From positions 474,544 to 538,543 of the forward strand of contig JACPWO010000001.1 of the NCBI GenBank assembly GCA_016197005.1: a stretch of 64,000 nucleotides of DNA, given 5' to 3'. Origin of the DNA: Candidatus Anderseniibacteriota bacterium. Its GTDB lineage: Bacteria; Patescibacteriota; Andersenbacteria; UBA10190. This document shows, one piece after another, positions 23,338 through 59,709 of the stretch. The position numbers and the translations under genes are program-made. The stretch's first letter is position 1, and the number at the start of each line of letters is the position of its first letter. The notes below the pieces were generated by a model. The model saw only the letters and a program-made list of their open reading frames with translations, was not told the DNA's origin and did not search any database.

Positions 23338-23366
23338 AACGGTGCCTGCAGTAGGGCCGTTTTTTG
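23338..23366 (+). terminator. Imperfect terminator-like hairpin followed by TTTTTT
   Basis: AACGGTGCC-loop-GGGCCGTT then T6, 20 nt after stop. Confidence 0.4.
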
Positions 23367-23382
23367 CGTTTTAAGGCTCCTG

Positions 23383-23410
23383 TTGACAGCTTTTGCAGGT
23401 TATATATAGT
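23383..23410 (+). promoter_or_regulatory. Candidate separate 23S rRNA promoter (TTGACA -16- TATAGT)
   Basis: -35 TTGACA 23383-23388; -10 TATAGT 23405-23410; ~355-nt leader to 23S 5' end. Confidence 0.5.
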
Positions 23411-24382: not shown

Positions 24383-24429
<47 letters not shown>

Positions 24430-27577: not shown

Positions 27578-27694
<117 letters not shown>

Positions 27695-27719
27695 TTTTCT
27701 GAATTGAAACCCTTCAAAC

Positions 27720-34385: not shown

Positions 34386-34414
34386 CAAAAATCCCGCCTT
34401 TTGCGGGATTTTTT
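34386..34414. terminator. Bidirectional terminator hairpin (AAAATCCCGC-CTTT-GCGGGATTTT) between convergent genes
   Basis: Stem flanked by A-run on one side and T-run on the other. Confidence 0.55.
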
Positions 34415-35720: not shown

Positions 35721-35834
35721 GATACAAGAAGGTATAGTACGCGACCGGGCGGGAGAGTCAACCTTGACAAATTATCAACTAATATTTGCTATAATGGCCT
35801 GGCAAAGCCTATCTCTGGGGTAAGGGTATATTCT

Positions 35835-40338: not shown

Positions 40339-40347
40339 CTGCATCCA

Positions 40348-42895: not shown

Positions 42896-42901
42896 GAAGT
42901 C

Positions 42902-43801: not shown

Positions 43802-43815
43802 GCTATACTAACGCC

Positions 43816-44778
43816 ATGTCACGGCGAATTGTTATCGCCATCCTAGTGGTCCTTATCCTTGGTGTCCTTGCCGGTACCGTGTGGCTTGTTATTTCTCGTT
43901 TACGCGCAAACGCTCCCACGGACACAGCCAATGACACCACTCCGGGAACATTGGAAGAAGCTCCTACAGGTGGCCAAAATATAGTAAATCCTACCGGTGA
44001 TGATGACGGGGATGGTCTTTCAAATGCCGATGAGTCTATTTGGGGAGCTGATCCTAAAAATGCCGATACTGACGCAGATGGGTTTAAGGATGGCGAAGAG
44101 GTACGCAATAGCCATAATCCAACGATTGCTGGGCCAAACGACATCCTACCGGATGGATTTACACCAGGAAAAGAAATAACACCTATTGAAGCCGCTCCGG
44201 CTCAACCAATTGCGGTTGACCAGTTTTTTGAAGAGAATGTAAATTTAGAAATTGCGCCAGGTAGAAATTTAACTCTGGAATATGAAAGCAAATACCCAGA
44301 AGATCAGCGAACAGAGGCCAGTTTAATGGATTTTGTCTATCAACAATCTATCGAAGTAAAACTGCCCACCCCTTCCGTTAACTCAACAAATATTTTACAA
44401 CGAGAAGCGAACGCTGCCGACATTAATGCATATGTAGAAGAAGTGGGAAGTTTAGATTTCTTAGGAAACGAGCAAGTAATACAACTAGCGTTGAACGAAC
44501 TACTCAACAATGAAGATCCAACTCTAATTCAAAGTCAAGCAGTACAATTGCAGGTATATCAACAGCTTTTAATTAAGACCCCCGTACCTAAACAAGCAGA
44601 GAGTGTTCACAAATTACTACTAGGCTATAGTGAACTTGCAACAGCCACTTATAATCAAGCCGCTCTTCACCCCGTTGATCCCGTGAAAGCCCTTGTAGCT
44701 ATAAACCAACTCGAATTGATAAATGGGCAATATTTGCCTTTAATTGAACAAGAATTAAATCGCCTTCTCTTAGACTAG
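43816..44778 (+). CDS. N-terminally anchored protein with Asp-rich calcium-binding repeats, paralog C
   Basis: DDDGDGLSNADE and DTDADGFKDGEE repeats; conserved C-terminal helical region shared with A and B. Confidence 0.55.
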   Translation: MSRRIVIAILVVLILGVLAGTVWLVISRLRANAPTDTANDTTPGTLEEAPTGGQNIVNPTGDDDGDGLSNADESIWGADPKNADTDADGFKDGEEVRNSHNPTIAGPNDILPDGFTPGKEITPIEAAPAQPIAVDQFFEENVNLEIAPGRNLTLEYESKYPEDQRTEASLMDFVYQQSIEVKLPTPSVNSTNILQREANAADINAYVEEVGSLDFLGNEQVIQLALNELLNNEDPTLIQSQAVQLQVYQQLLIKTPVPKQAESVHKLLLGYSELATATYNQAALHPVDPVKALVAINQLELINGQYLPLIEQELNRLLLD

Positions 44779-44860
44779 GAAGAACTTTGGCAGGCCGGTA
44801 TCTTAATTAGGCTATAGCTTCTTTCTTTGCCAAACTCTGTTAGAATATGTCTAACTTGCT

Positions 44861-46720
44861 ATGTCCTTCTTTCGCCCTGCTTTTTATGCTGTTGGCTTCC
44901 TAATAGTATTTGGCATTCTTGTTGCCGTTCCGAAAGCACACGCAGATCCACATGCAATGTTCTATACCGCAATTGGTCAACAGCAACTCTTTTTTAACGT
45001 TTTAGCAGCCTTGGACCAGGCAGATTATGTTGAGCCATCTACCAACACAACTGGAACTGATTCAGGAAGTTCTCGGGAAGAACTTATAAAAGAGCGTGAT
45101 GAGGCAGCTAAAGCACTTACTGAAGGTGAAACTGGATATCCAGCTGAAGATTTTCCAGTACTAAAAGCAACTGAGAGCGATCTAGCTTCAGTCTTAACTC
45201 GTAATATTTCACTTGAGGGACAAGATATTTGGACTAGTTATTTACTACGGGAAGCTGTGAAGGAAGAGGAGCGACGAGAACATTTTGAAAAACTCACTGG
45301 CATCTTATGTAACATAAGTCAGGGAGCATGTTCTGGTGAAAAAACTCCAAGAGAAGCGTTTGAAACAAGCCCTTTTGAAAAGGCTGTTAATTCCATTACA
45401 AACGGTGCAGTTGGCGCTCTCTTTTCAAGTAACGATCCTAATAGTTACGATCAAGAACGTCGCCGTAAGGCTTTAGAAGATCAGTTCAAAGGAGACGCAG
45501 CTGAATCTATTCCATACCGTGCGGATATCGCTGCGCTAGAGTCAGCCACAAGTGGAGATGTAACAAAAAAAACAACAATTACACAGCTCAAAAATGCTCA
45601 GCTCCGCGGACTACGAAACCCTGTGATAAATCCAAACGCTTTAAGTGGTATTGTTTTTGACCCCGAGACACAAGAACCCTCCCTTGCGTTTGATGAAAGC
45701 AGTGAAGAGTATGATGTTTCTGCATTTACTGGTTCTATTAGTAATTTCCTAACTCTTAATCAGGCGCTTGGTTCAGCCGCGTCAGAGGGAGCAAATAAGA
45801 GCATCGCAAGCAAAAACAGCACAACAGAAGACGGGGGGTACTTAGCAGAAACTATTCAAGCTGCTCGTCCTGCTGGGAACGGAGCAATTGGAGAACTATC
45901 GCCGCGAATACTTCGTCCAGCTGGTGCGGGTCCAGCTGTATTATCAGGAGTAATTTCTAGCTTAGGAATTTCTGAAGGTATTCCCTCTGATGTCAAATTA
46001 AGCGACAAGGAAGACAGCAAGGACGAAGACTGTGATATTAAAAAGGACGGGATCTGTGTAAAGAATAACAGCCCGATTTGTTTTGTAGGCGGCAGCTCTC
46101 TAACCGTTTCGTTTACCCTGAGTAGTACTGGCGGAGAGTCAAAAGCAGGAGTAGTAGCTTTATACCCAACCCAGCACGATGGCGAAATAGGAGGACCAAT
46201 TCGCGATCCGTCTTACTCTCCTCCGTCTAATAATTTTTACGGTAGCAGCGGAAGATCTTGGGGTAATCAATCTATTGGTAATCAAACATACTCTGTATCC
46301 GGAACAGCACAAGTAAACGGTGTACTTGGATATCGCATCCTCTTTAGATACGGTCAAAGCAGTTCCGTTGCTGCAACTTTAATTATTCCTGAGTGCAATG
46401 CCACTACTAGAAGTACCGATCAAAGTCGAATCTTTGGAGCCCAAGACTCGGTCACTGTTAGTCCTTCTTCACCTACTCCAGAAACAATCAATTCACCTGT
46501 AAATGGTTCGGTTTTAGGTACACGAGAAGACTTAAGGAGTGCGGACAATGATTATCTTCCTTTGCATGAGGAAAGTTATGAAGCTCAGAGCTTACTGCAA
46601 GCCCTATCACCGCTTCATTATCAACGCAAAAAACCTGGAAATTCTAGTTCCGGTGGTACCGTCAGTGGGGCAAGCACTACTTCTTATTTTCAGCAGGCGA
46701 TTACTAACTACTTCAAATAG
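44861..46720 (+). CDS. Secreted hypothetical protein (619 aa)
   Basis: N-terminal signal/anchor (FYAVGFLIVFGILVAVPKAHA), Ser/Gly-rich, no known motif. Confidence 0.5.
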   Translation: MSFFRPAFYAVGFLIVFGILVAVPKAHADPHAMFYTAIGQQQLFFNVLAALDQADYVEPSTNTTGTDSGSSREELIKERDEAAKALTEGETGYPAEDFPVLKATESDLASVLTRNISLEGQDIWTSYLLREAVKEEERREHFEKLTGILCNISQGACSGEKTPREAFETSPFEKAVNSITNGAVGALFSSNDPNSYDQERRRKALEDQFKGDAAESIPYRADIAALESATSGDVTKKTTITQLKNAQLRGLRNPVINPNALSGIVFDPETQEPSLAFDESSEEYDVSAFTGSISNFLTLNQALGSAASEGANKSIASKNSTTEDGGYLAETIQAARPAGNGAIGELSPRILRPAGAGPAVLSGVISSLGISEGIPSDVKLSDKEDSKDEDCDIKKDGICVKNNSPICFVGGSSLTVSFTLSSTGGESKAGVVALYPTQHDGEIGGPIRDPSYSPPSNNFYGSSGRSWGNQSIGNQTYSVSGTAQVNGVLGYRILFRYGQSSSVAATLIIPECNATTRSTDQSRIFGAQDSVTVSPSSPTPETINSPVNGSVLGTREDLRSADNDYLPLHEESYEAQSLLQALSPLHYQRKKPGNSSSGGTVSGASTTSYFQQAITNYFK

Positions 46721-46726
46721 AGTTAC

Positions 46727-48808
46727 TTGATGCCATCACTCAAAAAACTTTACCGACCACTACAGCTCCTTCTGATTGGAATGAGTTTTGCTTTTCCGGG
46801 TGGTGCCTCAGCAGAAGAAGTTTACGACATCAGAAACGCAGAACCCATGTACGTCCTTACTTACAATAAGGCAACTCTTATTAGCCAGTACGGGTGTCAA
46901 GAAGTACCAACAGAAGATCGAGTTAATGATTTAGGGTTTGTTGCCTTTGTTATTCCTGATGGTCAAGTGCTAATTAAAACAGTAGAAAGTGAAACCGGGC
47001 AAAATGCTCAAGCAACCAAAAAAGTGTTTGCGTTTGCGTGGGCAATGTGCACAGAAGCACAAGCAGAGGCGGCTTATAAATCACAACCTCAAATTGAAAC
47101 CGGTATCACGCTGGAAGGTGTCCAATATTACGCAGCACAAATAATAAGTTCGGTATTGTGGATGGTAGCCGAAATCGGATTATGGCTACTACAACTTGCC
47201 AGTAAGCTGCTTTTTCCGGTTTTAACCGCGGGGGCTTTTATTACGAACGATATCGTACAAAAGGGGTGGCCTTTCATCCAAGGCTTGGCAAACCTTGGCT
47301 TTATCCTAGCGTTACTAGCAATAGCAGCTTTAACTGTCCTGCGTATTGACGTTGGCGGCGGAGTAAAGCGGCTGCTTCCTCGCCTTTTGATTGCTGCACT
47401 GCTTATTAACTTCAGCCTTGTTATAGGCGGGGTTATTATCGATTCCTCTCGAGTTGTTATGGCTATTTCTTGGCAAATCCTTAAAGGTAGTTCAGGGGCA
47501 ACTCCAGATAAATTAGGGGCTCGGATCATAGATAATTCTCAGCTTATGAAGAATGTTTTTTGTCCGGTAGGATCAGGGGCAAATGCATCATGCGTAGGTG
47601 GTAGCTTCGAGCTTCAGGGGAAAATATATACAACCTGGGATGGTGTTTTAAAAGTTGCAGAGGCAACAATATTTATTTGGGTCATCACAGGAGCCTTGCT
47701 CGTGCTGGCAATTATGCTCTTCATACGCCACGTGGCTCTATTACTACTCCTTATAGTTTCTCCCTTGGCGTATCTGGCTGCCGCGATGCCAGCAGCTGGT
47801 AAATTTGCCTCGCAATGGTGGGAAAATTTCTTGCGATACGTTATTTATGGTCCGGTAGTCATGCTTATTCTCACAATCATTGCTGCCTTAACCGAATCCG
47901 AGAGTGCGGGTGCTGGAATCGATGTAAAATCTTCGTCACTGCGAAATATTATGGAAATGTCGGTGGTTACAGTCTTGATCATAGTAGCAGCAACTGCGGG
48001 TAAATATGTTGGAATGTACGGAGCGGGAGCAGCAGTCGGATTTGTGAAGGGTTTACCAGGACGCGCAGCTAGAAATCCCAAGAAAACTGCCGCCTTAGCT
48101 GCTGGCATTGCTACCGGAGGGCTTGGGTTAGTTCCTAGTCTAGCCGCTGCCGGCGGAACAGCCTATGGAATACGACGCACACAAGATGCCTGGAAAAAAT
48201 TCCAAACTGGTAGAAAGAAAACCCAAGAAAAGAAAGAAAAAGCCTCCTTTATGCAAAGAGCGGGCGAAGTCGGTTTTCGCAAAGCAACCAAAGAAGCAAG
48301 AGGTAGAAATGAAGCATTCAGAGACGCTCGAGTGCAGGGAGATCTTAGTCGCTTAAGTAGAGCTGAACTTACTACCAACCCAGCTCTTTCTCCAGAAAAA
48401 CTAGCTAATCCTTCATTCCTTACGGGGTTAGGAAAATCTAATATTCAAGAAATATTGAAACGAGGAACCAGGAGCCAGCGTGTCGGAATTGCAGCCAGTG
48501 TTGGATCTATGAAGCAAGAATCACCTGCCATGAAGACCGTAATTGACGGGGTAATTAACCAACAAACATTTGATGTTTACAACAGTGCTCAACAAGTTAT
48601 TAATGACCCTACTGCCACCCAAGGAGCAAAAGACAAGGCTGCAAATGAAATTGATGGTATTAATCGTGTTCTGCGCAGTTTGGCAAACAACGAAAAACTT
48701 GTTGATAAAATGGATGCAGGTCAGATACAGCAAATGCTAGAACACGAAGATACGAAAACCACAGATGATCTTTTAAAGAGCCTTAGTAAGACACGGTCTA
48801 GCGGATAA
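46727..48808 (+). CDS. Polytopic membrane protein, VirB6/TrbL-like candidate (T4SS-like inner-membrane component) with Lys/Ala-rich C-terminal tail
   Basis: Signal peptide, ~120-aa extracellular domain, >=6 TM helices, ~230-aa hydrophilic tail; lies next to a VirB4-like ATPase. Confidence 0.5.
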   Translation: MMPSLKKLYRPLQLLLIGMSFAFPGGASAEEVYDIRNAEPMYVLTYNKATLISQYGCQEVPTEDRVNDLGFVAFVIPDGQVLIKTVESETGQNAQATKKVFAFAWAMCTEAQAEAAYKSQPQIETGITLEGVQYYAAQIISSVLWMVAEIGLWLLQLASKLLFPVLTAGAFITNDIVQKGWPFIQGLANLGFILALLAIAALTVLRIDVGGGVKRLLPRLLIAALLINFSLVIGGVIIDSSRVVMAISWQILKGSSGATPDKLGARIIDNSQLMKNVFCPVGSGANASCVGGSFELQGKIYTTWDGVLKVAEATIFIWVITGALLVLAIMLFIRHVALLLLLIVSPLAYLAAAMPAAGKFASQWWENFLRYVIYGPVVMLILTIIAALTESESAGAGIDVKSSSLRNIMEMSVVTVLIIVAATAGKYVGMYGAGAAVGFVKGLPGRAARNPKKTAALAAGIATGGLGLVPSLAAAGGTAYGIRRTQDAWKKFQTGRKKTQEKKEKASFMQRAGEVGFRKATKEARGRNEAFRDARVQGDLSRLSRAELTTNPALSPEKLANPSFLTGLGKSNIQEILKRGTRSQRVGIAASVGSMKQESPAMKTVIDGVINQQTFDVYNSAQQVINDPTATQGAKDKAANEIDGINRVLRSLANNEKLVDKMDAGQIQQMLEHEDTKTTDDLLKSLSKTRSSG

Positions 48809-49413
48809 TGACTCTTATGCCGTCTACTAACTTCTCTGGTATACCTGCCGCATCCTTGGTAATGATTCCCGAGGATAGACGCGCAGAATATATTCGAGCG
48901 CTACGAGCGCTACCTGTAACTTTACTTAAGGCTACTACTTCCGCAAAAACTGGTGCCTACATACTAGGTCTAGCAAAAACGCATGATATCCCCTTGGCAC
49001 AAGTAGAGAATATTTCTTTTGCTATATTTGAAATATTAATTGGCAAAAAAATATTAGTTCAGTTACCTAGTATTTTTTCAACCGAGCTACAGGTTGCTAA
49101 TGACAAAGCTCAGACAATGGCAAGAGAAGTAGAACGTGACTTAATTGCTCCTATATCGTCCGAATTAAATCGATATCTAGCTGATCAAAAAAAAATACAA
49201 GGAAGCATAAGTTCTAAGATTGGAAAGCAAAAATCTAAGCCAGTAGCTACTTCTCCAGCGTTGTCACCAACAACCAACTCAAAACCGGAAATTAGAACAT
49301 TTTCCACCCCTCCATCATTAAAGCGAATACCAAATAAACCTGCAATTCCTCCAAACATTCTTGATCTAAAAAAGAAGTGGGAACAACCAAAGCCCCCACC
49401 AATTCCCAACTAG
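48808..49413 (+). CDS. hypothetical protein, Pro/Lys-rich C-terminus
   Basis: 201-aa ORF translationally coupled to the upstream gene (overlapping stop/start). Confidence 0.4.
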   Translation: MTLMPSTNFSGIPAASLVMIPEDRRAEYIRALRALPVTLLKATTSAKTGAYILGLAKTHDIPLAQVENISFAIFEILIGKKILVQLPSIFSTELQVANDKAQTMAREVERDLIAPISSELNRYLADQKKIQGSISSKIGKQKSKPVATSPALSPTTNSKPEIRTFSTPPSLKRIPNKPAIPPNILDLKKKWEQPKPPPIPN

Positions 49414-50102
49414 CGTTCTGTTTCCTCAATTTTTAGCTGTCCAACGTCGTGTAATCTCTGATTGTGGGATGTCATTGGGTTATAGAAGTTATAAAACAGC
49501 TCTAAAAGTTCAGGGGTTTTTAAAGGTACGGCCCGTAGTCCAATTGCTCGCAGACCGCTAGCCACTTGCTCAACCCGTTGATACAACTGGGCACGATAAT
49601 GTCCAAATTCTTGCTCCGTAATTTTCTGGTTCCCGGTTGCTGCTTTTGCTCCTTTAAATATACGAGCAAAGAATCCTTCTTTGGAGGCTTGAGTAACTGA
49701 AAATGGGATAGTTACAAAAAATGTTTTTGTCATAATACTACTGTCTTTTACTAATTCACTGACGAAGTTAATATATTCTCCCATTTGAACTCGGAGCAGC
49801 TCATTTTGTTGTTTTTCCCGTAGTACCTTGACTTCTTCGAGATAGGGGGTGATATCTGCTTTGCGAGAAGAAATAGTTATCTGAATAGGATAATCAAGAG
49901 AGTTGAGAAAGTCTTGGTAGGCAAAGATAATAGCACTCTGTTCGTCTTCAGACTTTAGGGCGAAGTTAATCGAGGAAACCATAATGACTGCTCGCATTGT
50001 CCCATCATTCAATACTAGAACTCCATCTCGAATTTCTTTAAGACGCACCAGTACCTGGGAGGGTTTCCCTTTCTTCTCTGTTGATTTCATTTCATCGACC
50101 AT
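49410..50102 (-). CDS. hypothetical soluble protein
   Basis: 230-aa ORF divergent from the VirB4-like gene; no motif recognised. Confidence 0.45.
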   Translation of the reverse strand: MVDEMKSTEKKGKPSQVLVRLKEIRDGVLVLNDGTMRAVIMVSSINFALKSEDEQSAIIFAYQDFLNSLDYPIQITISSRKADITPYLEEVKVLREKQQNELLRVQMGEYINFVSELVKDSSIMTKTFFVTIPFSVTQASKEGFFARIFKGAKAATGNQKITEQEFGHYRAQLYQRVEQVASGLRAIGLRAVPLKTPELLELFYNFYNPMTSHNQRLHDVGQLKIEETER

Positions 50103-50106
50103 AGTT

Positions 50107-50553
50107 CTACTGAGGGACAGTTAAAGGATCTTCTTCATCTACTTTAGAAATATTACCTTCTGTTTCAAGCGAACGCGAGGTAGCTGCTAAAGCAGAAAAG
50201 TCTTCTTGGGCTGATCCACGAGCGATGAGTAATTCCTCCCACTCTGCATCCTGAATAACAAGAATGCGAGGGGTCTTTGTGCGCTGCCAGATATATAATT
50301 GGCCACTAGAGTAAAAGCGGAAAGCAGACGACACCGTTGAAGCGAGAGACTTACCATTAACTTTCCAATGAGCAAATGCGGCCGCTATACCCAGCACAGG
50401 GAAAGCAGCAGAAAAAAAGAGAGCAAGATCAGAAAACAAGAATACTGGCACTAGCGTTAGAGCCGCAGCTACATACATAAGAAACTGTTTTAGGGTAAGC
50501 GGCCCCAAAATTTTATCTTCAATATCAACAAACTGCGGTACCTGATAACGCAT
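50107..50553 (-). CDS. Small 2-TM protein, PrgI/VirB3-like candidate
   Basis: 148 aa; N-terminal MRYQVPQFVDIEDKILGPLTLKQF followed by two adjacent TM helices, as in PrgI/VirB3-type proteins. Confidence 0.4.
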   Translation of the reverse strand: MRYQVPQFVDIEDKILGPLTLKQFLMYVAAALTLVPVFLFSDLALFFSAAFPVLGIAAAFAHWKVNGKSLASTVSSAFRFYSSGQLYIWQRTKTPRILVIQDAEWEELLIARGSAQEDFSALAATSRSLETEGNISKVDEEDPLTVPQ

Positions 50554-50600
50554 CGTCTTTGCATTATAGCAGAAACTAACGTGTGGTATGATGCAGAGAT

Positions 50601-52454
50601 ATGAGCATTGTGAAAGATGCCGTTTCTTACCTTCGCGGCAATAAAGGCGATAAAACCGCAGCTACAGCTGACCATAAAAAAGCTGAGGGAGAAAGCGAGC
50701 GCCAATTTAATGAAGGAATATCTTCATTGACGGATATTTTAGCTCCGGCCGGATATAAGGTGGGGCCACGCCATTTAGAAATAGACGGCAAGTATGTGAC
50801 TACTCTTTTCGTTACAACGTACCCCCGTTATTTAGACACAAACTGGTTTTCACCAATTGTGAACTTTGACGTTGAGTTTGACGTTTCCATGTTCATCTAT
50901 CCGCAAGATACAGCGGCTATGCTTAAAGTTCTTCTAAAACGAGTTACTCAGGTATCTGCCTCTATCTCCATGAAGACGGAGCAAGGGAAAGTTCGCGATC
51001 CACAATTAGAAACGGCTTACCAAGATATTGAAGAGCTGCGCGATCGACTGGTACAAGGCACGGAACGTTTTTACAAGTTCGGCATGTACTTAACTCTGTA
51101 TGCCGATAGCGAAAAGGACCTTGATGATGTGCTATCTCAGATCCAGGTACTTCTGGAGGGGCGCCTGGTATATGCCAAACCTGCGCTTTTCCAAATGGAC
51201 CTGGGCTTTACTTCCACACTTCCATTAGGAAATGATCGACTTGCAGTAAATACCAACATGAATACTTCACCTCTTTCCACAACATTCCCATTTGTTAGCT
51301 CCGACTTAACAAGTAATTCTGGTGTTTTATATGGCATTAACCTCCACAACAGCAGCCTTGTCTTATTTGATCGTTTCAGTTTGGAAAACGCGAATATGGT
51401 CATATTCGCCAAATCCGGTGCGGGTAAAAGCTATACGGTAAAGCTTGAAGTGCTGCGCTCTCTCATGTTTGGAACAGAAGTCATTATTATTGATCCGGAA
51501 CAAGAGTATCGCTATCTATCAGAGGCAGTGGGAGGAAGTTACTTAAAAATTGCTATTGCGTCTGATCACCGTATTAATCCCTTCGATCTACCAGAATTAA
51601 ACGAAGATGAAGAACCAGACTCAGTTCTTCGTGAAAACGTTATCCGCCTTATTGGTCTTGTTACTCTCATGGCTGAAGGACTTTCTGCTGAAGAGCAGTC
51701 GGTCGTAGATAAGGCCCTCTGGGAAACATATGCTTTGAAAGACATAACGCCAGGCGTTCGCTGGCAAAAACCAGAGGTACCTACTCTCCAAGACTTCTAT
51801 AACATCTTAAAAGAAATGGATGGGGGCACAAACGCTGCTACACGACTTCAACGATTCGTTGAGGGAACGTTTGCTGGCGTATTCAATAGACCAACCAATA
51901 TTGATCTAGATAAGCAGCTCGTTGTATTTAACATCCGCGACATGGAAGAGGAGCTGCGCCCGATTGCTATGCACGTTGTACTCGGATACATCTGGAATCG
52001 TGTGCGCTCGAAACTTAAAAGGCGCCTGTTAGTAGTAGATGAGGCGTGGATCATGATGAAACACGAAGAGTCAGCTAAATTCTTGTTTTCCATGGCGAAA
52101 CGCGCTCGTAAGTACTACTTAGGAGTCACTACTATTACACAAGATATTCAAGATTTCCTTGCATCAAAATATGGCAAACCAATTGTCACCAACTCCTCTA
52201 TCCAGCTTCTTTTACGGCAAAGCCCGGCAGCAATCGATATGTTAGCTCAGGTGTTTTACTTAACTGATCATGAAAAATTCCGTCTCCTGGAATCTGACGT
52301 AGGCGAAGGTATTTTCTTTGCTGGTTTAAAACATGTGGCAATCAAAGTTATTGCGAGTTACGCAGAAGATCAGATTATTACTTCCGATCCACGGCAAATT
52401 TTAGCTATTGAAGCCGCTAAGAAGGAAATGCAAGAGCAAGAACTTACTAACTAA
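50601..52454 (+). CDS. VirB4/TraC-family T4SS-like ATPase
   Basis: Walker A FAKSGAGKSYTV; Walker B LLVVDEAWIMM with the VirB4-characteristic DEAW; ~600 aa, no TM. Confidence 0.75.
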   Translation: MSIVKDAVSYLRGNKGDKTAATADHKKAEGESERQFNEGISSLTDILAPAGYKVGPRHLEIDGKYVTTLFVTTYPRYLDTNWFSPIVNFDVEFDVSMFIYPQDTAAMLKVLLKRVTQVSASISMKTEQGKVRDPQLETAYQDIEELRDRLVQGTERFYKFGMYLTLYADSEKDLDDVLSQIQVLLEGRLVYAKPALFQMDLGFTSTLPLGNDRLAVNTNMNTSPLSTTFPFVSSDLTSNSGVLYGINLHNSSLVLFDRFSLENANMVIFAKSGAGKSYTVKLEVLRSLMFGTEVIIIDPEQEYRYLSEAVGGSYLKIAIASDHRINPFDLPELNEDEEPDSVLRENVIRLIGLVTLMAEGLSAEEQSVVDKALWETYALKDITPGVRWQKPEVPTLQDFYNILKEMDGGTNAATRLQRFVEGTFAGVFNRPTNIDLDKQLVVFNIRDMEEELRPIAMHVVLGYIWNRVRSKLKRRLLVVDEAWIMMKHEESAKFLFSMAKRARKYYLGVTTITQDIQDFLASKYGKPIVTNSSIQLLLRQSPAAIDMLAQVFYLTDHEKFRLLESDVGEGIFFAGLKHVAIKVIASYAEDQIITSDPRQILAIEAAKKEMQEQELTN

Positions 52455-52463: not shown

Positions 52464-52886
52464 ATGGCTACGTACAACGCAGAATCCCAAAATGCAGCAC
52501 GCTTAAATTTTGATCGCCGTCTCAGCCAGACACAACCGCAAGGTACTTCATCAAATCGAAATCCAGCAAGCAATTTAGCGAGCCGATTACCAGGCGCGTC
52601 AATGGCACAACGTCTGGGCCTTAACAAAAACCAGAGAGCGCAGAGAAAACAACCACAAGATATAAGCGAGAAAGCACTATCAACCGCACTGACTGCAGCA
52701 AAATTTGTTGCTAAAAGACTTGCGTGGATGCTTATGACGTGGCTATTCGGAATTCTCATCTGGCTTGCTCCATGGATACTACTTATTTCCTTAGTTCTGC
52801 TTATAATTATTGTTATCTTTGATGCAGGCGCCCTCGAAGCAGCTCGAGACACCTTCGTAGAATTGACCGTAAAAAGTCACCCATAA
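52464..52886 (+). CDS. Small membrane protein, hypothetical (T4SS-like module)
   Basis: 140 aa, long C-terminal TM hairpin (WMLMTWLFGILIWLAPWILLISLVLLIIIVIF). Confidence 0.4.
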   Translation: MATYNAESQNAARLNFDRRLSQTQPQGTSSNRNPASNLASRLPGASMAQRLGLNKNQRAQRKQPQDISEKALSTALTAAKFVAKRLAWMLMTWLFGILIWLAPWILLISLVLLIIIVIFDAGALEAARDTFVELTVKSHP

Positions 52887-52888: not shown

Positions 52889-53350
52889 ATGAGAACAAAA
52901 ATCCTATTTTCTCTTTTTGTTACCCTGCTTACATTCAGTGGGATACTTATTAATTCTATTCCCGTACTCGCACAGGACGAGGAGGATCCATGCGCAGAGA
53001 GTCCATTCGGATGTTTTGAAGCTCCTTTACCGGGCATATTTGATGGAAAAATTCTTGATTATGTAAAAGATAATGAAGGAAGTGCCCTAACATCTTACGT
53101 TGGCACTGTTGTTGAGTTTGTTACCGCTACGATTATCATCGTTGGCCTCATTCTTATTGTGGGCGGAGGTTATGTGTATATGACTGCTGGGGGCAGCGCT
53201 GAACGCGTAGGAACCGCTAAAACAATGATTGGCTCTGCTTTGCTAGGAATAGTTCTGGCCTTAGTAGCAGTTCTTATCTTAAATACGCTTAGCCCTCAAT
53301 TTGCTGAGCAGGCAAAAGAACCTTGTATTGGCGAAGACTGCCCAGAGTAA
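52889..53350 (+). CDS. Pilin-like protein (VirB2/TrbC-like topology)
   Basis: Signal peptide (cleavage near VLAQDE), then two hydrophobic helices (VVEFVTATIIIVGLILIVGG; IGSALLGIVLALVAVLILN); Cys at both ends. Confidence 0.45.
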   Translation: MRTKILFSLFVTLLTFSGILINSIPVLAQDEEDPCAESPFGCFEAPLPGIFDGKILDYVKDNEGSALTSYVGTVVEFVTATIIIVGLILIVGGGYVYMTAGGSAERVGTAKTMIGSALLGIVLALVAVLILNTLSPQFAEQAKEPCIGEDCPE

Positions 53351-54503
53351 GAGCTATTAATACAAAGTGTAGTATCGCTAAATCGTTCTTCCAAAAGATA
53401 GTGTCAGTAAAACCAAAGAGTATTAATACAAATAAAGCTAAAGCCACAGAAAACTTGAGACCTCTTTGGTAAAATATCCAGACGTGAAGAACAAGAAAGG
53501 CTCCTACCCCCACTAATCCGGTATTAAGCCAAAAAGAGAGAACCAAACTATGTGGATCCCTATACACAAATTCACTAAGTGGCTTTTTTTGTGATCTAGA
53601 GTTTTTAAAACTCTCAAAACGCTCGTGAAGTTTTCCTTGGTATGCCGGCTCAAAAGTTCCCAGCCCAATGCCAAGGATTGGGTTTTCTCGAATGAGTTCC
53701 CCCGAAATATCCCATAGTTGTAGTCGAACATATGCAGAACTGGCTGGTTGTAATAAGTAACTCGTCTTTTGAACGCTCACCCATACCGCAATCACCAACA
53801 AAATACTTACTGAGATTAAGACGAGAGGTTTTCTTGTTAACTGTATGTGTGGACGTAATGAGATTGTTCCTAAAAAAAGAACTACTATCACTGTCAGAAT
53901 ACCAGCCAGTGACTTTGTTCCCAGCAGGGCTATAAACATGGTACCGGCCATCAAGTAATTGATCTGCCATCCTCCAATTTTTATTCTTGTAAAAACGGCC
54001 AATACAATTAACGGCGCAAGAAAAAGTGCCAGGGATGCAGGGACATCATACACGCTCCGAATTCGATCAAGTGTTCCAATCTGACTAATGCCAATAAGCG
54101 CCACCACTACCCCTGATGTAATAAGCGCATTTAAGATATAGTCTCGTATCTTAGGAAATCTCCAAGTAGCTATATATACCTGAGCGGCATATAGCAAAGG
54201 GACTAATATCCACCCTTTTAAAACTCCAAGACTCGTCTCAGGGTGAGGAGAAATGATAGTAGAAACAACTGCTGCTGCAACAAAGAGAAGGAGACAAGTA
54301 GCTACTGGCCATGGTAGGACCCACATAACTTCTTTCCAACTTCGCCTCATTGTGGGTTGCAGAAACCCTGCAATTGTCACCCCAATAATCAGCACCTCAA
54401 GTACGTTTGTAGGAATACCCAATACGGAAAACCGCACCAGATACGTCGGTAAGAGAGCGGCTATCGCTATGAGGCCGTATCGGTAGAGAGGCTCAGTGCC
54501 CAT
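53289..54503 (-). CDS. Polytopic membrane protein, O-antigen ligase/Wzy-like candidate
   Basis: ~10-12 TM helices with a larger loop; adjacent to GT2 and Wzx genes. Confidence 0.45.
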   Translation of the reverse strand: MGTEPLYRYGLIAIAALLPTYLVRFSVLGIPTNVLEVLIIGVTIAGFLQPTMRRSWKEVMWVLPWPVATCLLLFVAAAVVSTIISPHPETSLGVLKGWILVPLLYAAQVYIATWRFPKIRDYILNALITSGVVVALIGISQIGTLDRIRSVYDVPASLALFLAPLIVLAVFTRIKIGGWQINYLMAGTMFIALLGTKSLAGILTVIVVLFLGTISLRPHIQLTRKPLVLISVSILLVIAVWVSVQKTSYLLQPASSAYVRLQLWDISGELIRENPILGIGLGTFEPAYQGKLHERFESFKNSRSQKKPLSEFVYRDPHSLVLSFWLNTGLVGVGAFLVLHVWIFYQRGLKFSVALALFVLILFGFTDTIFWKNDLAILHFVLIALTLGSLRQYKVLLPAQQIEG

Positions 54504-55792
54504 AAAATGCTTAAAGTAATAAGGAGATGTACATACAAAAAGCTATTAAGAAATTGAGAGTGAATAAGAAGCGTCAGAAAACAACCAAGCGGAGCAAGTA
54601 AGGGGAGAGCCCTTTCACTCAGAAATCGCCGCCATGTTTGTTGCAGGCCATATGTCCATGGAAGAAGAAACAAGATAACTCCTGGTATTCCAGTTGTAAC
54701 CCATAACATAAGCCAGCTGTTATCTACCCCGGCTCGAGAATGGAGAGAGAAGTCCGAAGCAAGACCTGCCCTGGCTGCTGCAAATTGATAGCTATTATAC
54801 CCAACCCCCACGAGAGCTGTCGTCGAAGCAAATTCTTGCCACACTGCTCTCAGTGACTGTAGCCGCAATTGAACAGTGGAATCATGCGTTATTGTTCCCA
54901 CCAGCCGATCGCCGAGTATCCACCCGGCTATGCTTACACTCACTAGCCCCAAGGCTCCAACGAGAACAATCTGAAGGATCCTATGCTTCCGATATATTGC
55001 GCCCGCAGCAGATACATACCGCCAGACAAGGAGGGGAGACATAAGTAAGCCGGCTGCCGCCAGCGCAATCAAGCTGCTGCGAGACTGGGTTAGGGCGAGA
55101 GCTAAAAAACTAGCCCCTATAAGAAAAGCACGCTGAATGGTCCAGCGTGCATTTGCGCCCCAAAAAATAAGCATGAGCATAAAAAACCCACCCAGGAAAT
55201 TCGGATCAAGCCAACTCGCAACCAGTCGCTTCTCGTGTGGATCCCAGCCCGTGCCAACCCAAGCTGGCAGATCATGTATGTTTGGCAGAATGAGTATCTG
55301 TAAAAATCCAAGAACAAGTAAAGCGACTGTAGCCCCCATCAAAATTTTATGGGCAAATCGTCGCAGCAGTGGATCCTGGAACAGAAGTAAAAGTGCCGGC
55401 AAGAGGAGAAGGTAAGAAGTAAGACGAAATAGGTAAGATATCGAAATGATTGATACCGACGTATCCATCGAAGGTAGGTGAATAACAAGTGTAAACAAGG
55501 ACCACATAAGAAATGGGAGAAGGAGCAAACCGTGATAAGTAGCTGTCCTACTTATCTGTTTTCTCTGCAGAACTCGCATGCTGCTAGCTACTAGTATAAG
55601 AATAACAGCCACGTCGCTGAGTAAGAGTCCTCCCGCTTGTCCGAAGACTGGAATACGTAAGACCTGCCCAGTGATAAGGGATATTCCGAGTATTCCAATG
55701 GCTATCCGTGGGAATACTACTGACCACCACCCTAACGGGAGTAAGGCGAGACCAAGCGGTATAAATGGCGCAAAAATCGCTGTAATAGCCAT
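54467..55792 (-). CDS. Polytopic membrane protein, O-antigen polymerase/ligase-like candidate
   Basis: 441 aa, >=10 TM helices; polysaccharide-cluster context. Confidence 0.45.
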   Translation of the reverse strand: MAITAIFAPFIPLGLALLPLGWWSVVFPRIAIGILGISLITGQVLRIPVFGQAGGLLLSDVAVILILVASSMRVLQRKQISRTATYHGLLLLPFLMWSLFTLVIHLPSMDTSVSIISISYLFRLTSYLLLLPALLLLFQDPLLRRFAHKILMGATVALLVLGFLQILILPNIHDLPAWVGTGWDPHEKRLVASWLDPNFLGGFFMLMLIFWGANARWTIQRAFLIGASFLALALTQSRSSLIALAAAGLLMSPLLVWRYVSAAGAIYRKHRILQIVLVGALGLVSVSIAGWILGDRLVGTITHDSTVQLRLQSLRAVWQEFASTTALVGVGYNSYQFAAARAGLASDFSLHSRAGVDNSWLMLWVTTGIPGVILFLLPWTYGLQQTWRRFLSERALPLLAPLGCFLTLLIHSQFLNSFLYVHLLITLSILWALSLSTDTAS

Positions 55793-56508
55793 ATCGATGG
55801 AGAATAGTGCTTTTTGAAGTACTTGTCTGCAGAGGCATCATATAGCCGGGCTTTCACTCGCTTATTACTCAAGCTTGCTCCACGTTCATGCCGTACTTTT
55901 ATCGTCGGCTCAATTACTACTTTCCACCCACCAACACGCGCCCGGCGACATAGGTCAACATCCTCCCAATACATGAAGAACTCTTCATTAAAGCCCTTTA
56001 GTTGTTCAAATGTCTGTCGGCGAATAAGCATGGCTGCTCCAGAGACCCAATCTGGCAATTGGTATTCCGATTGGTACGTTTTTCCTTTTTTAATAAGTGA
56101 CCATAGCGTTGGCTCCATGCCATACGCAAAGGTTTCTGGTTTACCATCAGAATCTTCTAAACCCAATCCGATAATACCTATTTGTGGGTCAGCTTCGAAT
56201 ACGGCCGTAGCAACGTCGAGCGAACTTTGTAACTCGGCATCAGGATTGATGAAAAGGAAATACGCAGGAAGCGTGGCTTGGTTAATAAGAGCAGCTACTC
56301 CCTGATTTATTGCCGCTCCAAATCCCTTGTTAGTAGCATTTACGATTGCAGTAACCGAAAGGGTATGTAATATCTCAACTGTTTTATCTTGAGAGGCGTT
56401 ATCAACGATAACGATACGAGAAATATTCGCCCGCTGCAGACTTTGTACACACTTTGTGATCGTGTGCTCATTGTTATGGGTAACAATAGCGACAGCAGTT
56501 TTGTTCAT
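55732..56508 (-). CDS. Family 2 glycosyltransferase
   Basis: AIVTHNNEHTITKCVQSL...IVIVDNASQD GT-A N-terminus, DxD-like motif. Confidence 0.8.
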   Translation of the reverse strand: MNKTAVAIVTHNNEHTITKCVQSLQRANISRIVIVDNASQDKTVEILHTLSVTAIVNATNKGFGAAINQGVAALINQATLPAYFLFINPDAELQSSLDVATAVFEADPQIGIIGLGLEDSDGKPETFAYGMEPTLWSLIKKGKTYQSEYQLPDWVSGAAMLIRRQTFEQLKGFNEEFFMYWEDVDLCRRARVGGWKVVIEPTIKVRHERGASLSNKRVKARLYDASADKYFKKHYSPSIWLLQRFLRHLYRLVSPYSR

Positions 56509-57287
56509 ATCACTATACTTTTTCTATCGACTAAAGCTTGTGCGAGATCAGTATGTCCAGACAGACGATGATAGAGATAACGACCAGAGTTTAGAGCCTT
56601 CCAATACACGCGCCAAAAAGAAGATGTATAGTTCTCCAGAACGTAAGCGCCATTCCGCACTAGGTAATACTTCTTCAGAGGAGGTAGAGGTTCTACTGCG
56701 TCATTATGCGTTATCCCTATACGAGGCAGGGGCAGAAGGGGGATACCAGCTTTGGAGACACTCCAGCTAAATACTACGTCTTCCCAATACATGTATAACC
56801 CCAACGGTAACTGTGTCACTTGAAAGACGTGAAGCGGAGCAACTAATACTGAGCCGTGAACATATTGCTTGCCCATTAATATTTCTGGCATTGGTGGCAG
56901 ATGAGCCCTCCCCGTAAACAGATTTACTACCCCCAATTTATCCCCCGCTAAGAAGGGATTGCTTCGGCTCTCTGCCCACTCACGTAATCCTTTCATCGTG
57001 CCACTTGAAATCTCAACGTCGTTATTAAGGCAAATAACAACATCATCCGATTGCCCTCCCAAGGATTGAATCACTTTTAACCCCACGGTTAATCCAGCAA
57101 CATATCCCTTATTTGACTGCCGTTTAACTATTACCGTCTTATCTGTCGGTAGGTCATAGGGAATATCAGCATGATCTACTATAACGGTGAAGTCAGGGCG
57201 GGCACTGCTACTGCCTAAAGCCTCAACAAGCCTAAAAGTGCTTCTAGGCGATGTATAATGGACAATTACAGCAAAATACCGTCTCAT
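56505..57287 (-). CDS. Family 2 glycosyltransferase-like protein
   Basis: VIVHYTSPRS...VIVDHAD N-terminal GT-A-like pattern. Confidence 0.65.
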   Translation of the reverse strand: MRRYFAVIVHYTSPRSTFRLVEALGSSSARPDFTVIVDHADIPYDLPTDKTVIVKRQSNKGYVAGLTVGLKVIQSLGGQSDDVVICLNNDVEISSGTMKGLREWAESRSNPFLAGDKLGVVNLFTGRAHLPPMPEILMGKQYVHGSVLVAPLHVFQVTQLPLGLYMYWEDVVFSWSVSKAGIPLLPLPRIGITHNDAVEPLPPLKKYYLVRNGAYVLENYTSSFWRVYWKALNSGRYLYHRLSGHTDLAQALVDRKSIVI

Positions 57288-57364
57288 ACTGGGGAATTAT
57301 ATGTGGAAAACTCTGTGGGAAAAGGGGTCGTCATCTGTGTACAAGTCTGGACACTAATACTAGT

Positions 57365-58288
57365 CTATTTCGACAATTTTCGCGGGATTCCAGCAACTAC
57401 CCCCCGACGATAGGCGTAGGCCGCGGCGTGCGAAAACAAACGAGGAAGCGTATATCGACGAGAGGTAAGGCGCACAACGGAAGTAAGCAAAGGAGCAATA
57501 AGGAAAGGATACAAAAAAAGTTGAAGCCGATGCCGAAAACTAAATTCGGATTCTGGCGAGGGCAGATGAAGAAGCTTTGCATAGAGGTGCCGACTTTTCC
57601 CAGCTGCATACTGCCGCTTCAGAAAGGCAGAGGTGGAATAGAAATGGTGATGAAGTCCCGTCGCTCGTTCCAGTATGTGCAATCGCAACCCCCTCGTCGC
57701 CAGTCTATCACCCAGTTCTGTATCTTCATGCCCATAGCCAGTAAACTGCTCGGAAAAGAGGTCAGAAGAAATAAGGTCACGCTTCAGAGAAAGGTTTGAG
57801 CCGTACAGGTACTTTCGAGCATCGACGATCTTTTCTCCTAATAAAGTATCGAAGTCATTTTGTGGCCCTCCGTGTATTGCCCATTGCATCAGGGGCGTTG
57901 GTCGCAACCGGGGGTCCCACATTACAAAACCAAGCGCACCGTCTTGCGTACTCGGATGTTGTTCATGAAAAGAAAGATGAGCTGCAAGCGCGCTTGGTCG
58001 GAGAATAATATCGGCACCAAGAAACAAAAGAATATCAGCCCTTGAAGCTTTAATACCGCGATTTCTCGCCGCGGCTGCACCATGATGCTCTCCGGATATA
58101 GAGATGGTTTCCAGGCAGTATTTCGTGCGAGATATCATTTCACGCGTTGCATCCGTTGACCCGTCATCACACAGGAGCACGCGTACTTTCCACGAAGAAA
58201 CAATCTCTTGCCTGTTGAGCTCTTCCAATACTAACGGGAGAGTCTCAGCGTTGTTGTACGTTGGAACAATAATGTCGCATGTTTTCAT
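57365..58288 (-). CDS. Family 2 glycosyltransferase
   Basis: IIVPTYNNAETLPLVLEEL...VLLCDDGSTD. Confidence 0.8.
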   Translation of the reverse strand: MKTCDIIVPTYNNAETLPLVLEELNRQEIVSSWKVRVLLCDDGSTDATREMISRTKYCLETISISGEHHGAAAARNRGIKASRADILLFLGADIILRPSALAAHLSFHEQHPSTQDGALGFVMWDPRLRPTPLMQWAIHGGPQNDFDTLLGEKIVDARKYLYGSNLSLKRDLISSDLFSEQFTGYGHEDTELGDRLATRGLRLHILERATGLHHHFYSTSAFLKRQYAAGKSRHLYAKLLHLPSPESEFSFRHRLQLFLYPFLIAPLLTSVVRLTSRRYTLPRLFSHAAAYAYRRGVVAGIPRKLSK

Positions 58289-59709
58289 GCTGTCTTCTGC
58301 ATAAGAAGTTTAAATTGTTTGGCTTTTAGTAAGCCCGCCGCCCATGCCCCCGCCCCATATACCATCATAGCTAAGATAAGCGCAGGAACAGTTGGTATAA
58401 CTCCAAGAAGCGCTCGACATACAAGCCAAGTGGCTACAGATAACACACTGATTGCCAGTAGCGCCCCAAAGGAAATACGGAAGTGAATACTTTTGTGTAC
58501 CAATACACCCGCAACTATAGCTGAGAGTGCCTCAGTGGCTACTGTTACCCACGCCGCGGCCGGTGCGCCAAAGTGAGGAATGGTAAGGGAGTTAGCGATA
58601 ACTGCAAAAATCACGAGCCCGGCGTATAACACAAGAAGACTACGCTGCTTTCCTTGAGCTACTAAAGTAAACCCAAATAAGTTACCAAAGAACATAACGA
58701 GAAGGGCAATTGCCAACGTAGACAAGAGAGGACCGGCTGGAGAAAATTCTGCGCCAGATAATATTGTAACAATGGGTGTCCCCGCGCTAATAAGTAAGGA
58801 ACAGACGAGCCCGCCGGCGATAAGCAGCGCATAGAGTGACTGTTCTAGTAACGCCCGAAGTTTAGTAGTGTCTCGAGTAGCACTTAGTTTTGGTAAGAGC
58901 AGCCCTCCAAAAGCAGCCGGGATGAAAAGTAAGCTTTCAACAATTCGGTAAGCTAAGCCGTACCACCCCACTTCTACCGCTGGCCTAAACCAGGACAACA
59001 TAAGAATATCGATACGAAAATAGATGGCGCTCAGAATGAGCATAAGAGCTAGTGGCCATGACGTCGTGAGTAGCTCTTTCCACTTTTCTCCCGCAAATGT
59101 TAAGCGAAAAGGCCGCAGTTGAGGCAAGAGTAAACTATGAATGAGGTAAGCTCCAGCTGCAGATACGGCAAACGCTGCCGTCGCAAAAACGACCGAGACT
59201 TTTCCATATTGATGTGCAAACACGCTTATGAACACTCCAACTACTACTACCTGCAAGAGACGACCAACAAAGTCACCAAGAGCGGCTCGCCACATGGCGC
59301 CATACGTTTGGTACACCCCCATAAAAAGTTGGCTCCAGGATTGAAACAAGAAGCCAAGAGCGGCAACTGCATACGCCGAAAGGAGAAAACGGTAGGTAGG
59401 TAGAAGAAAAATCGCTACTCCTCCCAAACCAAACACCACTACGGCGAGCACTAGCCGCAACGACATGGCTGAGGAAAGTATTGTTTGTTGCCGAGAAGCA
59501 GCTGCTCCTAGCTGTCGCGTTACCGTAAGATAAAGTCCAAAATCAGCTGCTGTTTGTAAAAGCGCTCCCAAAGAAAGCAGCAGAGCATAATCCCCAAAGT
59601 TATTAACTCCTAAGAGACGACTTATGAGGGCGGCAACGACTACCCCCAGGGCGCCACTAGCTACTCGCCCGGCGACCGACCAGCCGGTGTTAGCGAGGAC
59701 AGACGCCAC
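58285..59709 (-). CDS. Wzx-type polysaccharide flippase (MOP superfamily)
   Basis: 474 aa, ~12-14 TM helices, N-terminal pattern of polysaccharide biosynthesis protein family. Confidence 0.75.
   Translation of the reverse strand: MASVLANTGWSVAGRVASGALGVVVAALISRLLGVNNFGDYALLLSLGALLQTAADFGLYLTVTRQLGAAASRQQTILSSAMSLRLVLAVVVFGLGGVAIFLLPTYRFLLSAYAVAALGFLFQSWSQLFMGVYQTYGAMWRAALGDFVGRLLQVVVVGVFISVFAHQYGKVSVVFATAAFAVSAAGAYLIHSLLLPQLRPFRLTFAGEKWKELLTTSWPLALMLILSAIYFRIDILMLSWFRPAVEVGWYGLAYRIVESLLFIPAAFGGLLLPKLSATRDTTKLRALLEQSLYALLIAGGLVCSLLISAGTPIVTILSGAEFSPAGPLLSTLAIALLVMFFGNLFGFTLVAQGKQRSLLVLYAGLVIFAVIANSLTIPHFGAPAAAWVTVATEALSAIVAGVLVHKSIHFRISFGALLAISVLSVATWLVCRALLGVIPTVPALILAMMVYGAGAWAAGLLKAKQFKLLMQKTA

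Follow-up and report, generated by a model that had tools for sequence, protein, structure and literature searches.

The 617-aa protein encoded at 50601-52454(+) in a 64,000-nt stretch of the chromosome of a Candidatus Anderseniibacteriota bacterium (assembly GCA_016197005.1, contig JACPWO010000001.1, positions 474,544 to 538,543; in the following, the window means this whole stretch) is very probably the catalytic C-terminal part of a VirB4 ATPase which is split over two genes and belongs to an ori-proximal, chromosomal type IV secretion system (T4SS) of the Patescibacteria. The initial annotation of the sequence had described it as a VirB4-like ATPase of compact size, approximately 200 aa shorter than proteobacterial VirB4. 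The difference in length is correct, and in all likelihood it arises because the first ~200 VirB4 residues are encoded by the neighboring TrsD-like open reading frame (ORF) of 230 aa at 49410-50102(-). Thus, the reading as a shortened VirB4 was not upheld, and the 'compact VirB4' would be the larger half of a split VirB4 and not a new minimal motor. The features on which this assignment is based are the following:

50601..52454, + strand: virB4C, predicted C-terminal catalytic fragment of the split VirB4 ATPase, 617 aa
51405..51440, + strand: Walker A (P-loop) FAKSGAGKSYTV, aa 269-280 of virB4C
52026..52058, + strand: Walker B LLVVDEAWIMM including DEAW, aa 476-486 of virB4C
49410..50102, - strand: trsD-like gene, predicted N-terminal fragment of the split VirB4, 230 aa

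Assignment of the 617-aa protein and its TrsD-like partner

The ORF of virB4C runs from ATG to a stop codon exactly at the annotated coordinates, and both annotated Walker motifs were found, each string occurring only once in the protein. The Walker A motif of the GxxGxGKS/T type (GAGKS, aa 273-277) and the DEAW-type Walker B motif (DEAW, aa 480-483) are intact. In an alignment of 30 sequences with members reaching as low as 31% identity with the 617-aa query, G273, G275, K276, S277, D480, E481 and W483 are invariant. As annotated, no transmembrane (TM) segment was found in the 617-aa protein by a hydropathy scan (Kyte-Doolittle, 19-residue window), which is normal for VirB4, since this ATPase is held at the membrane by VirB3 (PMC9259494).

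Among the curated NCBIfam models, the 617-aa protein passes the cutoff of NF045971 ('VirB4-like conjugal transfer ATPase, CD1110 family'; 752 positions) with 368 bits (curated cutoff 325; E=9e-110). The best PDB match in the single-sequence search was 4AG5, the C-terminal domain of the VirB4 protein of Thermoanaerobacter pseudethanolicus (E=8e-43 over aa 234-594); this match and the curated CD1110-type match are far beyond chance. R388 TrwK/VirB4 was the second PDB match (E=6e-11; aa 140-563 versus TrwK residues 306-736). Using a profile of 30 relatives, the E values were 5e-84 for 4AG5, 2.5e-15 for TrwK and 7e-8 for HerA, and no type IV coupling protein (T4CP), TrwB or VirD4 chain was among the matches of this PDB search. 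Below their cutoffs, three further NCBIfam models matched, namely Mbov_0397 ICE VirB4, F-type TraC (182 bits, cutoff 567, E=1e-53) and TIGR00929 VirB4_CagE (135 bits, cutoff 643, positions 240-725), while the TrbE models remained far under their cutoffs (E>=3e-8). Pfam matches were obtained to P-loop_TraG, AAA_10, TraC_F_IV (positions 258-373) and DUF87, the HerA central domain; DUF87 is above its cutoff and confined to the Walker A region (aa 266-330). Of the Pfam families proposed in the initial annotation as a check, AAA_10 and DUF87 were thereby recovered, whereas the proteobacterial CagE_TrbE_VirB family (PF03135) was not significant (12.7 versus 21 bits, E=0.13). No T4CP family of Pfam matched the 617-aa protein even at E<=1. 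The best profile matches thus lie within the VirB4/TraC family, in agreement with the annotated VirB4/TraC/TrbE assignment, and judged by these matches the 617-aa protein is a genuine VirB4-family T4SS ATPase. The NCBI record of the identical protein is titled 'ATP-binding protein'.

The protein probably belongs to the monoderm, MPF_FATA-derived VirB4 clade of Patescibacteria, so that proteobacterial VirB4 was the wrong yardstick for its size. In the work of Quinonero-Coronel et al. 2025 (PMC12102498), who surveyed 3,035 Patescibacteria genomes, the VirB4 proteins of Patescibacteria are described as a monophyletic clade nested in MPF_FATA. A size of ~610 aa is conserved, as the 120 best homologues (75-84% identity) nearly all have 600-630 aa; the best plasmid homologue has only 37.6% identity.

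The shortness of the protein becomes apparent from its position in full-length models. It spans only positions 185-733 of the 752 positions of NF045971, and it comprises the distal half of the VirB4 N-terminal domain (NTD; ~aa 40-233) and a full RecA-like ATPase C-terminal domain (CTD; ~aa 234-594). The architecture of a full-length VirB4, i.e. a complete NTD and an ATPase CTD in one polypeptide, is therefore not found in the 617-aa protein alone, and only together with the product of ORF 49410-50102(-) is it complete. This TrsD-like ORF product, which starts at Met5 in the NCBI record and then has 226 aa, is soluble and has no TM segment. It matches positions 15-180 of the 375 positions of Pfam TraC_F_IV, positions 11-121 of NF045971 (E=1.8e-9) and positions 19-213 of TIGR00929. 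Thus, in three independent full-length VirB4 models the 230-aa ORF fits exactly the segment which the 617-aa protein lacks. The match to the TrsD/TraD family NF041427 (E=7e-6) reached only 25.9 bits at a curated cutoff of 200, and the ORF carries a precomputed PF26593 TraC-like domain. From these profiles, the product is better named a VirB4 N-terminal (TraC-like, PF26593) domain protein than a member of TrsD/TraD.

As a fused reference we used the RefSeq-annotated VirB4 of 830 aa from Bacillus cereus plasmid pJ62_2. The TrsD-like profile aligns by hhalign to residues 25-214 of this protein (probability 97.8%, E=9e-13), and residues 232-817 are covered by an alignment of the 617-aa protein (E=4e-71), so that both together tile the fused VirB4 contiguously and without overlap from residue 25 to residue 817. 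Fusions of a TrsD-like N-terminus and a VirB4C-like C-terminus were also found in more than 50 of the 150 best library representatives, and the TrsD-like ORF matches the N-termini of such fused homologues by BLASTP (P0127, E=2e-47; P0124, E=8e-46). The NTD of TrwK comprises residues 15-400 (PMC9259494), which places the split point of VirB4 inside the NTD. According to these alignments, the TrsD-like protein corresponds to the proximal half of the VirB4 NTD, and the distal half is located together with the ATPase domain in the 617-aa protein.

Several results weigh against the split or limit what can be built on it. Some of the fused representatives may be due to read-through by the gene caller, because trsD and virB4C are in frame in some loci, and some long forms (P0122 and P0123, Peregrinibacteria type) carry unrelated low-complexity N-terminal extensions instead of TrsD. 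Since the fused metagenomic representatives can only be partly trusted, the argument is based mainly on the RefSeq protein of B. cereus and on the full-length profiles that are curated. The AlphaFold2 model of the 617-aa protein, calculated from a multiple sequence alignment of 33 sequences with 73-83% identity, reached a mean predicted local distance difference test (pLDDT) value of 43; it was discarded and used in no fold search. The AlphaFold model of the TrsD-like protein was moderate (pLDDT 67), and its top 13 Foldseek matches in the PDB, all of them TrwK/VirB4, were non-significant (E=0.03-0.08, TM-scores 0.34-0.41); this model-based result was taken only as consistent with the reading as VirB4 N-terminus. 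By phmmer and profile hmmsearch, no PDB match was found for the TrsD-like protein even at E<=10, and the hhalign comparison with the TrsD protein of Staphylococcus aureus was weak (probability 12%, E=0.0025).

Conservation, gene neighborhood and alternative explanations

To place the pair in a broader context, the 80 best genome loci from species-representative genomes were surveyed (54-83% identity to the 617-aa protein), originating from Andersenbacteria, Paceibacteria-type groups, Saccharimonadia, Kazan, Falkowbacteria, Peregrinibacteria and others. All 80 best loci are from metagenome-assembled genomes of Patescibacteria, with a few differing record titles. In 74 of the 80 loci, prgI, trsD and virB4C are located on one strand with gaps of mostly 0-25 nt or with overlaps; trsD is directly upstream of virB4C in 74/80, often with overlapping stop and start codons, and a prgI homologue is directly upstream of trsD in 69. 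A fused trsD-virB4C gene was found in none of the 80 loci. Six loci were without a TrsD match, of which two are cut by contig ends and four are of the Peregrinibacteria type. In the latter (L030, L036, L054 and L073), the VirB4 homologues have 790-910 aa, their N-terminal 115-240 residues are of low complexity (A/P/Q/E-rich) and unrelated to TrsD, and no TrsD-like ORF was detectable near VirB4. These Peregrinibacteria-type loci fit the report that TrsD and VirB4 are not associated in Gracilibacteria (PMC12102498).

The three genes prgI, trsD and virB4C are intact ORFs in the window, and their nonsynonymous distances (dN) to relatives are 0.12-0.35; only dN was computed, since synonymous sites are saturated and the NG86 dS was undefined. 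The possibility of a pseudogene remnant was considered and rejected. The further genes of the neighborhood are:

50107..50553, - strand: prgI, PrgI/VirB3-like small membrane protein, 148 aa; Pfam PrgI 30.4 bits, cutoff 27
46727..48808, + strand: VirB6-like polytopic membrane protein, 693 aa; at least six TM-like segments by hydropathy
48808..49413, + strand: 201-aa protein between the VirB6-like gene and the prgI-trsD cassette
52464..52886, + strand: 140-aa protein directly downstream of virB4C, one C-terminal TM segment by hydropathy
52889..53350, + strand: VirB2-like T4SS pilin candidate, 153 aa; signal peptide and two TM helices by hydropathy

In the window, prgI is located 4 nt upstream of trsD, and its product contains a hydrophobic hairpin at approximately aa 20-62 according to hydropathy. 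In 51 of the 80 loci, a homologue of the VirB6-like protein is encoded upstream of virB4C and in the same orientation; homologues of the pilin candidate were found downstream of virB4C in 27, and PF18895 T4SS_pilin is assigned to the genes in the same position of L085, L086 and L087. The window contains dnaA at 61923-63305(+), ~9.5 kb from the T4SS genes, with jag, yidC and rnpA beside it on the - strand; the four genes lie within 59.7-63.3 kb. Among the surveyed loci, yidC was found in 40 and dnaA in 32, with ksgA and uvrD upstream in 27 and 21, respectively. This synteny from ksgA via the T4SS to yidC-dnaA across Patescibacteria indicates vertical inheritance and not a mobile element. With VirB4, TrsD, PrgI/VirB3 and a VirB2-like pilin in a chromosomal location, the window has the composition of a Patescibacteria-type T4SS, and virB4C could be retained as the anchor gene of a T4SS-like module, as had been proposed. 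The VirB6 and pilin assignments are supported by matches under the cutoffs, which speaks against them: the VirB6-like protein matches Pfam TrbL/VirB6 only weakly (E=0.006), and the pilin candidate matches TrbC/VirB2 with E=0.003 and the Mbov_0395 pilin-like family with E=0.0009.

For the 201-aa protein, no Pfam or NCBIfam match was found. Its homologues occur in 7 loci including L002-L004, its position is conserved in Andersenbacteria relatives, and a gene for ~167-184 aa is found in the same position in L082, L083 and L085. The 140-aa protein gave sub-threshold family matches only, and homologues of it were not detectable in any other locus. In one relative from the Andersenbacteria, a gene for a 125-aa protein with a 23S_rRNA_IVP domain is located on the opposite strand between prgI and trsD (L085 2881-3258; L086 2563-2940), which means that the prgI-trsD junction tolerates insertion. 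Two library representatives of ~1020 aa (P0264 and P0244) have N-termini matching aa 1-47 of the window PrgI, which suggests VirB3-VirB4 fusions among the relatives; PMC12102498 reports no such fusion for Patescibacteria.

Three alternative explanations for the protein and the module were considered, the least probable being that the 617-aa protein is another ATPase of the FtsK/HerA superfamily, i.e. a VirD4-type coupling protein, an FtsK/SpoIIIE translocase or HerA. The DUF87 match and the presence of HerA and DptH among the distant PDB matches would be in line with this, but the VirB4-specific models and the PDB ranking are far stronger, the N-terminal TM anchor of T4CPs is missing, and the context of PrgI and TrsD is typical of VirB4. 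We therefore rejected an identity as T4CP, FtsK or HerA, whose probability is practically negligible. Also, the protein could be a self-sufficient, streamlined 'minimal' VirB4 which has lost its N-terminal region, with the 230-aa ORF as an unrelated accessory gene. In favor of this, more than 100 relatives have retained the 617-aa form as an ORF of its own, crystals were obtained from the isolated catalytic CTD of T. pseudethanolicus VirB4 (4AG5), TrsD is listed with 'no function assigned' in PMC12102498, and the Peregrinibacteria-type homologues have no detectable TrsD nearby. Nevertheless, this explanation is quite improbable in view of the exact fit of the 230-aa ORF to the missing segment, the tiling of the fused B. 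cereus VirB4, the position of trsD directly upstream of virB4C in nearly all surveyed loci, and a TrsD homologue reported as essential in S. epibionticum (PMC12102498).

The third explanation concerns the module as a whole, which might be a conjugative element, either an ICE (integrative and conjugative element) or an integrated plasmid, with VirB4 powering conjugation, or in a variant a DNA uptake system like archaeal Ced or ComB of Helicobacter pylori. Consistent with this, the best curated family is titled 'conjugal transfer ATPase', plasmid homologues are mostly on conjugative plasmids (2272 of 3338 records), a weak match to CedB was obtained (E=7e-11, far under the cutoff), and the GC content is slightly lower at 44-54 kb (0.42-0.44) than in most of the window (about 0.45-0.50). 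However, no relaxase, T4CP, integrase or replication gene was found among the 55 scanned ORFs, which comprise nearly all those with 110 aa or more in the 64-kb window. The synteny from ksgA to dnaA is also shared by dozens of Patescibacteria lineages. Relaxases were found in only 103 of 3,035 genomes according to PMC12102498, and the essential T4SS of Saccharibacteria has no recognizable coupling or relaxase proteins (PMC10633639). An ICE origin was rejected because of the missing mobility genes and the conserved chromosomal synteny; a conjugative or DNA uptake module as such is unlikely.

Compared to known systems, the window agrees with the chromosomal T4SS of Patescibacteria in organism group, component set, chromosomal location, the lack of a nearby relaxase or T4CP and the distance of ~9.5 kb to dnaA. 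In PMC12102498, the components of these systems are given as TrsD, PrgI/VirB3, VirB6 and VirB2-like pilins with almost no relaxases and a frequent location near dnaA. There, TrsD is treated as a separate component with 'remote homology' to the VirB4 N-terminus, and a lack of this region in the VirB4 of Patescibacteria is not mentioned in the available part, so that reading TrsD and VirB4 as one split VirB4 is our interpretation. The same order and sizes of the three genes are found in staphylococcal plasmids of the pGO1/pSK41 type (MPF_FATA, pGO1 subclass), in which a TrsC-position protein of 135 aa is followed by TrsD (227 aa) directly upstream of TrsE (670 aa, 'DUF87'). The 617-aa protein aligns from TrsE residue 7 (27% identity, E=1e-47), indicating the same split point in the window and in the staphylococcal plasmid. 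The match of the TrsD-like protein to the staphylococcal family is weak, as given above (26 versus 200 bits). In contrast to the window with its chromosomal and divergent genes, the staphylococcal system is plasmid-borne and conjugative with a MOBQ relaxase and colinear genes. Fused monoderm VirB4 proteins (CD1110 family; B. cereus pJ62_2; T. pseudethanolicus) are single polypeptides, whereas the window uses two genes on opposite strands. With proteobacterial VirB4/TrwK (R388; PDB 7O41) and F-type TraC, the ATPase core and the distal NTD align and Walker A and B are conserved; unlike the window proteins, TrwK and TraC are single polypeptides of 800-870 aa in diderm T4SSs with VirB7, VirB9 and VirB10. 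The split VirB4 design is thus already known from pGO1-type plasmids and nearly all Patescibacteria. In the source records, the 230-aa partner is almost always a 'hypothetical protein' and the ATPase an 'ATP-binding' or 'DUF87' protein. Owing to this labeling, the two proteins should be counted together as a single VirB4 when size and domains of T4SS ATPases are surveyed in the candidate phyla radiation (CPR).

Inversion of the prgI-trsD cassette

The only novelty specific for this locus is the inversion of prgI and trsD, a minor gene-order variant of an already described system. The following features were assigned:

49410..50600: inverted segment with prgI and trsD, about 1.15-1.19 kb
50554..50600: divergent intergenic region of 47 bp with two outward extended -10-like motifs
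50563-50571, - strand: extended -10-like motif TGCTATAAT, 9 nt before the ATG of prgI
50584-50592, + strand: extended -10-like motif TGGTATGAT, 8 nt before the ATG of virB4C

Compared to all 78 comparison loci, none of which is arranged like the window, the prgI-trsD cassette is reverse-complemented and thus divergent from virB4C. The closest relatives, with 77-84% protein identity and from independent samples, are all colinear. Using blastn, positions 2854-3949 of L082 align to window positions 50553-49458 in reversed orientation, while virB4C aligns forward, and the same alignment pattern was obtained for L083, L085, L087 and L002-L004. The left breakpoint is a palindromic CTAG at 49410-49413, in which the stop codons of the 201-aa gene and trsD overlap; the right breakpoint is inside the 47-bp gap at 50554-50600. 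Inverted repeats were not found at the breakpoints of the cassette. The same inverted arrangement is present in L001, an independent Logan assembly which is 100% identical over 14,381 nt.

The pattern TGNTATRAT has 4 matches in the whole window, two of which are located in the 47-bp gap, each facing outward. In L082, the closest colinear relative, a similar motif (TGGTATACT) is located 9 nt before the ATG of prgI, and the trsD-virB4C spacing is 3 nt. A third perfect extended -10 motif, again TGCTATAAT, was found at 35787-35795(+) in an intergenic region ~40 nt upstream of a uvrD/pcrA-like gene (start at 35835). From these patterns, the 47-bp gap was inferred to contain putative back-to-back extended -10 promoters giving near-leaderless mRNAs. 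The purely pattern-based nature of this assignment counts against it, as does a -35/-10 promoter scan, which returned nothing in the gap.

Since prgI and trsD are inverted, the two parts of VirB4 must be translated from different transcripts, and being on different transcripts they must act as separate polypeptides in this organism. In this respect, the inversion is a small piece of natural evidence that the VirB4 parts work as separate polypeptides. We tentatively consider that the inversion is a fixed and adapted rearrangement, with the two VirB4 halves in divergent units driven by the extended -10 promoter pair of the 47-bp gap via near-leaderless mRNAs, although this whole scenario remains rather doubtful. 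If true, it would be a natural experiment proving that the N- and C-terminal fragments assemble in trans, with a fusion by read-through or frameshift being impossible. Also, the phylum-wide split may then allow a PrgI-TrsD membrane 'receptor' and the motor to be dosed or assembled separately. The opposite orientation of prgI-trsD might instead be an assembly artefact or a reversible, phase-variable switch, given that it was seen in only one of ~79 genomes and that both assemblies with the inversion may stem from the same sequencing run. This is very improbable, as two different assemblies agree with 100% identity over 14.4 kb including the inversion, and no recombinase gene is located near the cassette. 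The breakpoints are also free of repeats or inverted repeats by which an assembler could be misled or which an invertase could use. Moreover, the junctions look adapted, with the stop codons overlapping in CTAG and a new extended -10-like motif 8 nt before the ATG of virB4C, in a place where trsD and virB4C of relatives are separated by just 3 nt.

Proposed role of the T4SS and further features of the window

In the R388 system, VirB3 wraps around the NTD of VirB4 (PMC9259494), and a VirB3 partnership as for proteobacterial VirB4 is expected in the window system. In analogy to this, TrsD would bind to PrgI/VirB3, the membrane hairpin protein, and to the 617-aa fragment, and TrsD and the 617-aa fragment would rebuild VirB4, oligomerizing at the cytoplasmic face of the VirB6-like channel. 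The predicted ATP hydrolysis would then provide the energy to assemble the VirB2-like pilin and/or to export substrates. In the study of Wang et al. 2023 (PMC10633639), it was shown that the T4SS of Saccharibacteria is essential for epibiotic growth of Southlakia epibionticum. As reported for Saccharibacteria, the T4SS of the window most likely serves host interaction or secretion for an epibiotic lifestyle and not conjugation; the lack of relaxase and T4CP among the 55 scanned ORFs and the vertically conserved cluster make a non-conjugative role the most likely one. Against this stand the predicted nature of the interaction between TrsD, PrgI and the 617-aa protein, and a basis for the role that consists of gene absence and of another class of Patescibacteria, the Saccharibacteria. 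For elucidating the role of the essential, relaxase-less Patescibacteria T4SS, the published, genetically tractable Saccharibacteria system is at least as testable as the window locus.

Directly upstream of the VirB6-like gene, six consecutive genes at 38812-46720(+) encode proteins of 508, 599, 254, 299, 320 and 619 aa, each with an N-terminal hydrophobic signal or anchor and with only faint matches to DUF11, DUF6376 and TSP3 repeats. For four of these proteins, conservation is confined to L002 and L004, two loci of Andersenbacteria, and homologues of the 299-aa and 320-aa proteins were found in 9-10 loci. The six proteins might be exposed at the cell surface or be substrates of the T4SS. A possible VirB1-like cell-wall hydrolase is an M23 peptidase with LysM domains at 34413-35720(-); however, no homologue near virB4 was found in any of the 80 loci. 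Between the T4SS genes and jag-yidC-rnpA|dnaA, a surface-polysaccharide cluster is located at 53289-59709(-), comprising two Wzy_C O-antigen-ligase-like proteins, two GT2 glycosyltransferases, a 260-aa protein and a Polysacc_synt flippase. The part of the cluster with Wzy and GT2 shows synteny in relatives from the Andersenbacteria.

Further observations were made outside the T4SS region. An 853-aa ORF at 14449-17010(+), between a KH-domain gene and trmD, had no Pfam match at E<=1e-4. A tRNA-Ile with the anticodon TAT (UAU), uncommon in bacteria, is encoded at 5106-5180(-) and adjoins a divergent tRNA-Val(GAC). The rRNA genes are unlinked within the region 18406-27695: the 16S rRNA gene (18406-19876) with tRNA-Ile(GAT) is followed by protein genes, a tRNA-Ala on the opposite strand and then the 23S rRNA gene (23760-27482). 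The protein genes between 16S and 23S encode a helix-turn-helix protein (20234-20626), a CCA-adding enzyme (20713-22149) and an MS-channel-like protein (22616-23317). The 23S rRNA gene spans 3723 nt compared to a model of 2925 positions, including a group I intron (25851-26102). Both the unlinked rRNA genes and the intron in 23S are typical of CPR genomes.

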